Origin: a virus
Lineage: Duplodnaviria > Heunggongvirae > Uroviricota > Caudoviricetes
DNA: 34,584 nt
Reading direction: 5' to 3' (one strand)
Virus record (IMG/VR): IMGVR_UViG_2734482772_000010
Position 1 is the first letter of the stretch. Every line of letters begins with the position of its first letter. The translations under genes were made by a program, and so were the position numbers. Shown here in pieces: positions 23,792 through 24,319 of this stretch. Below the pieces are notes generated by a model. It had not been told where the DNA came from and did no database searches. It saw only the letters and a list, made by a program, of their open reading frames with translations.

Positions 23792-24319
23792 TTAATCCAG
23801 CCTTGGACAAGTCCAATAATCATTATCTGGATCAGGTGAATAAACCTTCAAACAACCCGCTCGCGGGGGCTTATCATCATCTGTCATCGGAACATTTTCT
23901 TTATCCAGTTTCACAGTCAAGTCTCCACCGGGAACATCCGTTTTATCAAAAAAAACAGCCTGACATGCTGATTTAGGTATTTTCACTTCATGGGCATTAT
24001 TGGATATGAACAAATAACAATTATTGCCAGAAGCTATGTAGTCACTTGGAATGTTATTTTCGTCTTTAATATGAAACTGCACAGTTGTCACCGGGCGTTC
24101 GCTATCCTTGGATACTTCAATTTTTTCAAAACTGCCCGCGTACTTATCTAGGCCGGGGAGTTGTTGGCGAATAAATTGTAATTCACGATTTACAACAGGA
24201 TTATCTGTTTCAACGCTAAAAACATCGTGCTCCTTAGTTGTGGTGGACATATCAGCTGGGGCAGTATTATCTCCACAGCCAGATAAAACAAATATCAACG
24301 GTATAAATAATTTACGCAT
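23792..24319 (-). CDS. lipoprotein, hypothetical (accessory gene downstream of repressor)
   Basis: ORF-track ORF 23792..24337 trimmed to ATG with AGGA upstream; MRKLFIPLIFVLSGC signal peptide with LSGC lipobox; several Cys in mature part; AT-rich. Confidence 0.6.
   Translation of the reverse strand: MRKLFIPLIFVLSGCGDNTAPADMSTTTKEHDVFSVETDNPVVNRELQFIRQQLPGLDKYAGSFEKIEVSKDSERPVTTVQFHIKDENNIPSDYIASGNNCYLFISNNAHEVKIPKSACQAVFFDKTDVPGGDLTVKLDKENVPMTDDDKPPRAGCLKVYSPDPDNDYWTCPRLD

Follow-up and report, generated by a model that had tools for sequence, protein, structure and literature searches.

A lipoprotein encoded behind the repressor of a BcepMu-like transposable prophage as a candidate barrier to superinfecting phages

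Background

The Cor lipoproteins of phages phi80, N15 and HK022 protect the carrier cell from superinfection, and Bor of phage lambda and TraT of plasmids are outer-membrane lipoproteins which the prophage or plasmid expresses in the carrier state. Here we analyse a lipoprotein gene that lies directly downstream of the repressor gene of a BcepMu-like transposable prophage. The prophage is represented by a stretch of 34,584 nucleotides (IMG/VR virus record IMGVR_UViG_2734482772_000010, Caudoviricetes), hereafter called the window. A first-pass annotation of this DNA had named the gene as a candidate superinfection-exclusion or host-interaction factor, with T5 Llp and Cor-type proteins as analogues.

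Two other described systems are relevant for comparison. Ltp of the Streptococcus thermophilus phage TP-J34 blocks DNA injection, and its target is the tape measure protein (TMP) (PMC3952083). In the transposable Pseudomonas phage Fc02 (Beetrevirus), a gene that is co-transcribed with the repressor was shown experimentally to exclude superinfecting phages (PMC9936078).

Results and discussion

The lipoprotein and its conserved domain

The lipoprotein gene, with its LSGC lipobox, stands on the strand and at the coordinates given by the first-pass annotation (Table 1). Its full open reading frame spans 23792-24337 on the minus strand, and we regard the ATG at 24319 as the best start because of the AAGGA located 7 nucleotides upstream and the matching length of the RefSeq coding sequence. 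The product from this start begins MRKLFIPLIFVLSGC. Its signal, MRK-LFIPLIFV-LSGC, has the Lys/Arg n-region, the hydrophobic core and the lipobox (pattern [LVI][ASTVI][GAS]C) of bacterial lipoproteins, and Cys15 is the predicted lipid-modified first residue. The lipobox occurs in 33 of the 35 homologue clusters, among which G14 and C15 are invariant. In E. coli the sorting of lipoproteins is governed by the Lol +2 rule; the Gly at +2, shared by 31 of the 33 lipobox-bearing close homologues, predicts sorting to the outer membrane.

The mature lipoprotein has 161 amino acids, with a computed mass of about 18 kDa and a pI of 4.6. Its AlphaFold2 model (built with 18 sequences) reaches a mean per-residue confidence (pLDDT) of 84, with most of residues 31-175 above 90, while the signal and tether (residues 1-30) are disordered (pLDDT < 50 for residues 9-30). 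The modelled part is composed of two helices (41-59), an antiparallel sheet, a short helix (117-124) and a terminal hairpin (157-172). In the core, which we call domain A, a helix pair with the motif LPxIRxxxPGLDKY is packed on the antiparallel sheet. The C-terminal tail is predicted to form a beta-hairpin of strands 157-159 and 168-172 (pLDDT 87-95), probably closed by a disulfide between C156 and C171.

The mature domain had been described as Cys-rich. This was overstated, since it has only four cysteines besides Cys15 (C101, C119, C156 and C171), but these four are conserved. C101 and C119, both in domain A, are invariant in the close-family alignment and, alone among all columns, also in one of 39 distant members, mostly long or differently anchored forms. 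C156 and C171 are retained wherever the tail exists: it follows an insert of about 150 amino acids in the long forms P0184, P0037 and P0041, whereas the short forms P0027 and P0034 lack it.

A search of 5.8 billion proteins recovered the 35 homologue clusters, all from Enterobacterales and all unnamed. The full profile search yielded 202 family representatives (E <= 0.001), which match profile positions ~28-140, and a second homologue search with a broad profile added at least a few distant members. The ratio of nonsynonymous to synonymous substitution (dN/dS) of the lipoprotein gene against a 90%-identical allele is 0.15 (0.07 for the repressor and 0.10 for the neighbouring DNA adenine methylase gene, dam), and the gene is under purifying selection. 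We rejected a chance open reading frame on account of the 35 clusters, the 202 representatives and this dN/dS.

The only annotated family matched is phrog_10002, whose function is unknown. The match is confined to its C-terminal domain, with residues 25-132 of the lipoprotein aligned to positions 215-321 of 328 (E 4e-12). Among 50,697 phage records, tblastn (E <= 0.01) found the lipoprotein only in Klebsiella phage KP12 and Escherichia phage Phi06_2974 B. Our literature search returned neither a paper on the lipoprotein nor one on E. coli BcepMu-like phages that mentions it.

Comparison with described systems

As far as sequence and fold comparisons can tell, the lipoprotein belongs to none of the Llp, Cor, Ltp, Bor and TraT families, and the two analogues named at first pass are not its relatives. 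Homology to T5 Llp was found neither by sequence (Pfam, tblastn) nor by the structure search, although the FhuA-Llp complex should presumably have brought Llp into the PDB libraries. Homology to Cor of phi80, N15 and HK022 was likewise not detected, and neither Pfam nor PHROG linked the lipoprotein to a named exclusion family; Bor/Iss and TraT, for which we believe Pfam to hold models, gave no Pfam match at E <= 0.01. The Pfam search found no Ltp repeats (PF07553) in the window protein; only its fusion relatives P0046 and P0186 have them.

Several likenesses of a looser kind can still be drawn. Like Llp, the window protein is a small phage lipoprotein with disulfide-forming cysteines and an outer-membrane location (both predicted here) and a part in superinfection protection (here only proposed; PMC9586334). 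However, it is about 100 residues larger, its relatives are often anchored in the inner membrane, and Llp comes from a virulent phage, which makes it early in infection rather than from a repressor operon. Like Ltp, it is a lipoprotein that a temperate phage encodes in its lysogeny module and that is tethered to the surface of a membrane, and proteobacterial Ltp repeats use the same lipobox, transmembrane (TM) helix or zinc ribbon plus TM helix. Its fold differs from that of Ltp, and its alleles do not track the TMP of the phage. Fc02 is also a transposable temperate phage with an accessory gene on the repressor transcript (a probable arrangement in the window), but its exclusion gene lies upstream of the repressor and encodes a 7.9-kDa product that the abstract does not describe as a lipoprotein (PMC9936078). 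Homology between the two proteins is not expected. In related BcepMu-like phages, this slot behind the repressor is taken by phrog_10002 and phrog_5825 proteins. In the ~328-residue phrog_10002 protein a cytoplasmic N-domain and a TM helix replace the lipobox, and the PPRxGC...WxCP tail is lacking; the alignment suggests that it shares one domain with the lipoprotein and not the full architecture.

A polymorphic slot behind the repressor

The window represents most of a Mu-like, BcepMu-like transposable prophage of Enterobacterales. Among phage records it comes nearest to Klebsiella phage KP12, Escherichia phage Phi06_2974 B and Escherichia phage PhiKM, of which PhiKM is assigned to Bcepmuvirus, and the 1.2 kb surrounding the lipoprotein gene are 100% identical to E. 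coli O68:H12 strain 97.3. As first noted from the sequence, the lipoprotein gene is AT-rich (39.6% GC, compared with 41.4% for the repressor and 54.7% for the whole window), co-oriented with the repressor and directly downstream of it. It starts at a gap of 41 nucleotides after the repressor stop. The sequence scan found no terminator-like site between the two genes. Given this gap and the missing terminator, the lipoprotein gene is probably co-transcribed with the repressor in the lysogen, and its position beside the repressor together with the probable co-transcription would imply expression in lysogens. The spacing is also well kept: in all but one of about 25 directly adjacent loci, 34-46 nucleotides separate the repressor stop from the lipoprotein start, the remaining one having 113 nucleotides. 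Downstream of the lipoprotein gene, a GC-rich hairpin is a candidate bidirectional terminator (Table 1), with a minimum free energy of -18.1 kcal/mol and a z-score of -2.85 against shuffled sequences; it has no clean T-run, and the consensus terminator scan did not call it.

The surroundings of the gene recur in other genomes. All divergent homologues that we looked up (from Morganella, Yersinia, a metagenome contig and Xenorhabdus) are located in BcepMu-like prophages, directly or one gene downstream of the repressor and ahead of a convergent dam or holin gene. Among 61 loci, 35 have an HTH_3-type repressor homologue as the upstream neighbour on the same strand, 2 have an S24-type repressor there and 23 one of two related membrane proteins. 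In both loci of the last kind that were checked (L014 and L258), the membrane-protein gene itself follows a repressor gene. The lipoprotein gene is also found behind unrelated repressor types, for instance in E. coli A35.

Alleles of the lipoprotein gene differ far more than the genes around them. In Morganella and Yersinia prophages the repressor, Dam and transposase are 84-91% identical to those of the window, compared with 41-47% for the lipoprotein, and at the nucleotide level the identity is only 35-60% over 24260-23780, rising again to either side. Between these allele types dN is 0.41-0.47 against 0.06-0.11 for the neighbouring genes, with saturated synonymous sites. The sequence comparison thus points to replacement by old, diverged alleles. 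Recent positive selection in situ was rejected as the explanation, given the dN/dS of 0.15 within the allele type and the saturation of synonymous sites between types.

Presence of the gene varies too. In a census that used the IclR-like gene as anchor and took in 68 related IMG/VR contigs, we found a stand-alone lipoprotein in 15, a 328-residue fused protein of N-domain, TM helix and domain A in 10, an N-domain protein together with a long lipoprotein in 4, the N-domain protein only in 6 and neither in 33. A domain-A protein is hence present in 29 of the 68, and the slot is empty or filled with other cargo in about half of the related phages. The gene has the features of a lysogeny-module 'moron', being repressor-adjacent, co-oriented, variably present and of atypical base composition, and its slot is polymorphic like known defence and moron hotspots.

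Other cargo was seen in E. coli MS20655, in which genes for an NA37 nucleoid-associated protein (PF04245, E 6e-81) and a 401-residue protein follow the repressor instead of the lipoprotein gene (locus L008, 1734-3949). The pair, an alternative or additional cargo of the slot, is found elsewhere as well (L006 7732-9947, L019 1187-3423, L241-L245 and L315-L318). At its C-terminus the 401-residue protein shows a weak similarity to KwaA, the Kiwa membrane protein (E 8e-5), and the two genes could be an undescribed prophage defence pair.

Distribution among mobile elements

Complete E. coli genomes have the gene in 22 of 5426 cases, in single copy, always on the chromosome and at different positions, as is expected for a transposing phage; 20 further E. 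coli genomes, of which MS20655 was the one examined, possess a related repressor module but no lipoprotein gene. Of 14 loci in species-representative genomes, 12 belong to the BcepMu-like prophage type, in Pantoea, Apirhabdus, Serratia, Pseudocitrobacter, Photorhabdus and Xenorhabdus. One other locus is a distant Mu-like prophage of Nitratidesulfovibrio, with an S24-type repressor followed by a TM-anchored domain-A protein and then by lysis genes. IMG/VR contributes 46 loci, most of them on contigs of 31-42 kb, and four plasmids also carry the gene. The carriers include E. coli, Salmonella, Klebsiella, Morganella, Yersinia, Photorhabdus and Xenorhabdus. More distant members are found in a toxin-antitoxin-rich island and in a P2-like prophage, in the latter flanked by the terminase and scaffold genes. 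The homologues are accordingly accessory genes of phages and mobile elements, and not uniformly chromosomal housekeeping lipoproteins, the finding that the first-pass annotation had named as fatal to its proposal. A housekeeping lipoprotein was rejected on the same counts (22 of 5426 E. coli genomes, 12 of 14 genome loci).

This distribution also bears on a lysogenic-conversion factor for host fitness, which would confer serum resistance, adhesion, altered permeability or stress tolerance in the manner of lambda Bor or TraT. The position, where expression in the lysogen is expected, the AT-richness typical of morons and the presence of animal and insect pathogens and symbionts among the carriers would all suit such a factor. 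However, the lipoprotein has no Pfam match at E <= 0.01, nothing in our analysis connects it with serum resistance, and domain A is fused to the Ltp exclusion domain in some relatives. It is also found in environmental bacteria, a P2-like prophage, a cassette/toxin-antitoxin island and a satellite-like island. Since domain A occurs in such varied mobile elements, conflict among these elements fits better than host adaptation, and we consider a host-fitness role rather unlikely.

Anchors, fusions and proposed function

Across the family, domain A is attached to the envelope in several ways: by a lipobox, by a lipobox with Asp at +2, by a TM helix, by a zinc ribbon with a TM helix, or by a cytoplasmic N-domain of about 200 residues with a TM helix. 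Next to the anchor comes domain A, whose roughly 110 residues include the two invariant cysteines. A helical insert of about 150 residues may come after it, and closer relatives then have the tail. Because these interchangeable anchors include inner-membrane ones, domain A would act in the periplasm and not at the cell surface. Moreover, in P0046 and P0186 a TM helix and domain A are combined with two Lipoprotein_Ltp repeats (PF07553), and Ltp-family proteins in the same search share the zinc-ribbon anchors.

P0186 is encoded in a small integrative element (L016, 9014-20690; JGI metagenome 3300017646), where the fusion gene comes right after an HTH_3 gene. The element also has an integrase, a Prim-Pol/VapE-like primase and HTH_17 genes, and looks like a satellite-type island with an exclusion gene.

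We tentatively suggest, at a probability well short of even, that the lipoprotein is a periplasmic barrier expressed by the lysogen, which blocks superinfecting phages at a step after adsorption. After cleavage of the signal peptide and lipidation at Cys15, a tether of about 15 residues would link the protein to the inner face of the outer membrane, and a compact acidic domain of some 145 residues (domain A plus the disulfide-closed C-terminal hairpin) would project into the periplasm. This domain may bind a protein of the incoming phage, either from the tail tip or ejected, or else a periplasmic or inner-membrane component of the host that is needed for DNA entry. Its action would thus be like that of Ltp, Sp or HK97 gp15, rather than masking of a receptor from outside. 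Support for a role in phage exclusion or host interaction is indirect and comes from the polymorphic slot, the allele swaps, the Ltp fusion and the Fc02 precedent.

Several observations weigh against the proposed barrier. The Ltp fusion is one lineage among the 202 representatives. The lipoprotein has no match in Pfam (E <= 0.01), NCBIfam or PADLOC, including zero matches to the defence-protein models of PADLOC-DB 2.0 at E <= 0.1. Of the structural check envisaged at first pass, the prediction gave a confident model, but the search matched it to no solved or viral structure, so no ligand is suggested. The promoter scan gave no consensus promoter for the repressor-lipoprotein transcript. In the contig comparison the lipoprotein allele follows neither the TMP nor the transposase backbone: some contigs with a 97-99% identical TMP are without the lipoprotein gene, and among those with a 93% identical TMP the lipoprotein alleles are either 90-91% or 38% identical. 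Nor does the allele track the SLT endolysin. A self-directed, TMP-specific block is therefore unsupported. A different periplasmic role, as inhibitor of or immunity protein against a peptidoglycan hydrolase or toxin (the tail lysozyme of an incoming phage, an effector of a type VI secretion system or a bacteriocin, or the phage's own leaky SLT endolysin), seems to us very improbable. Finally, the close homologues are predicted outer-membrane lipoproteins, which would fit mechanisms at the level of the receptor equally well.

One such mechanism is masking of an outer-membrane receptor as by Llp and Cor, in which the lipoprotein would bind the periplasmic face or lumen of the receptor and block adsorption or triggering. 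The required anchoring is predicted, as 31 of 33 close homologues have Gly at +2, the protein is a small phage lipoprotein with predicted disulfides as Llp is (PMC9586334), and divergent alleles could fit different receptors. On the other hand, no similarity to Llp was found in sequence or fold, and tblastn reached only two BcepMu-like phages and no Cor-carrying phage. Many relatives are anchored in the inner membrane by TM helices or by Asp at +2, which argues against strictly outer-membrane receptor masking as the common mode of the family. The tail fibre of the prophage itself has an invertible segment, hence a single masked receptor would not fully exclude it. We regard receptor masking as unlikely, though it ranks first among the alternatives to the periplasmic barrier, ahead of the host-fitness role.

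The inner-membrane forms suggest yet another arrangement. Domain A could be the periplasmic half of a trans-envelope module with the inner-membrane N-domain protein (phrog_5825/phrog_10002), acting on the lysogeny switch or on abortive infection, with the window lipoprotein as a reduced form. The N-domain and TM helix are indeed fused to domain A in 10 of the 68 census contigs or encoded next to it in 4, and the phrog_5825 type is fused to domain A in other phages. The phrog_5825-type N-domain weakly matches the phrog of the anti-repressor Ant (E 5e-4). In one IMG/VR contig (3300045988_119773; L258, 4265-5709) the HTH_3 repressor, which ends IHGDVLGNVIKGNVTIGTGG, and the 328-residue phrog_10002 protein, which begins MSKEKQTVNGDVGNVVSGDVTIHNY, are encoded by genes that overlap by 4 nucleotides, and both proteins contain the motif GDVxGNVxxGxVTI, which may be a contact site or a product of chance. 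Against the module, no N-domain gene is present anywhere in the window, 15 of the 68 contigs have the lipoprotein alone, so that the partner is dispensable, the common motif is short and could be fortuitous, and the Ant similarity lies below any safe threshold. We hold this arrangement to be quite unlikely. A more specific version, still more doubtful in our judgement, is that domain A belongs to an undescribed trans-envelope system in which a phrog_5825-type inner-membrane protein couples a periplasmic event, such as the attack of another phage or envelope damage, to the repressor switch or an abortive response. The window lipoprotein would then be one interchangeable sensor or blocker allele.

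Membrane proteins of 176-196 residues are encoded between the repressor and the lipoprotein in L014 (7422-7961), L071 (7360-7950), L061 (7246-7830) and 20 more loci. Those of 194-196 residues correspond to phrog_5825, and those of 176-179 residues, from Photorhabdus and Xenorhabdus, have no PHROG match.

Organisation of the window

The features of the window are listed in Table 1. The small genes between the lysis cassette and the early operon are, in order, a gene for 113 residues, a DUF2441 gene, dam, the lipoprotein gene and the repressor. The dam neighbour is also found in most related loci, and the promoter-like site and the Ner-like gene mark the lysis/lysogeny switch beside the repressor.

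Table 1. Features of the window, ordered by position
Feature	Position	Strand	Basis
Tail, head and lysis genes	1-21751	-	
D12-class DNA adenine methylase (Dam), convergent; downstream boundary of the slot	22983-23747	+	Pfam MethyltransfD12, E 3e-29
GC-rich hairpin, candidate bidirectional terminator	23756-23789		Lies between the convergent stops of the lipoprotein (23792) and Dam (23747)
Lipoprotein coding sequence, 175 amino acids plus stop, 528 nucleotides	23792-24319	-	Open reading frame; RefSeq coding sequence of equal length in E. coli 97.3
C-terminal tail (residues 141-175), motif KPPRxGCLxxxxPxxxxxWxCP	23795-23899	-	Model strands, alignment
Core domain A (residues ~31-140)	23900-24229	-	pLDDT above 90, invariant columns
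Flexible tether GDNTAPADMSTTTKE (residues 16-30)	24230-24274	-	Low pLDDT; variable in alignment
Predicted signal peptide and lipobox L-S-G-C (residues 1-15)	24275-24319	-	Sequence
Shine-Dalgarno AAGGA	24327-24331	-	Read from sequence, 7 nucleotides upstream of ATG 24319
Repressor, 136 amino acids, HTH_3/Phage_CI_repr, helical C-terminal part	24361-24771	-	Pfam and PHROG matches, RefSeq coding sequence
Divergent early promoter-like site (TTGACA, 16 nucleotides, TACAAT) and Ner-like gene	24788-25084	+	Promoter scan, 11/12 matches; phrog_8503, weak HTH_35
Early genes: Ner-like gene, IclR-type HTH gene, DUF3102 gene, then transposase and ATPase	from 24854	+	
rve-family (DDE) transposase	26650-28419	+	Pfam/PHROG matches
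MuB-like AAA ATPase	28403-29596	+	Pfam/PHROG matches

Other parts of the prophage are variable as well. The stretch 21811-22754, between holin and dam (about 46% GC), comprises the 113-residue frame without family match and the DUF2441 gene (phrog_5663). In strain 97.3 two other hypothetical genes stand in its place, which suggests a second variable cargo site adjoining the lysis cassette. From the small terminase gene to the SLT endolysin gene (18820-21229) the window is 82% identical to strain 97.3 (locus L009), between flanks of 95-98%, and the prophage is therefore a mosaic.

Just left of the window start, the corresponding region of E. coli 97.3 (L321, 4493-7443) is a tail-fibre region with an invertible segment. 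The segment contains an alternative fibre tip (gp53-like domain), two opposed tail-fibre assembly genes and a frameshifted Gin-like recombinase, and resembles the G segment of Mu. At the opposite end, past the Mor activator gene (33226-33612), an open reading frame that runs off the right end (33961-34584) matches phrog_12870 (function unknown, E 5e-97). The equivalent position in strain 97.3 is occupied by host DNA, and the frame is either an extra right-end cargo gene or part of a neighbouring element.

Conclusions

The lipoprotein is of a familiar kind, a prophage envelope moron and candidate exclusion factor, and the protein itself is new: its domain A has no Pfam family, a PHROG of unknown function and no structural neighbour found in our search. 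Even if an exclusion assay were negative, a conserved, lysogeny-linked envelope protein would still need explaining. If the proposed barrier is real, a new protein family and fold would do the job of Llp, Cor or Ltp in widespread transposable prophages of E. coli, Klebsiella, Salmonella, Yersinia, Serratia, Photorhabdus and others, which would be relevant for phage therapy against lysogens and for competition among prophages. The slot behind the BcepMu-like repressor is a swap-in hotspot for lipoprotein alleles, fused membrane versions and a pair containing NA37, and could be mined for further phage-resistance functions.

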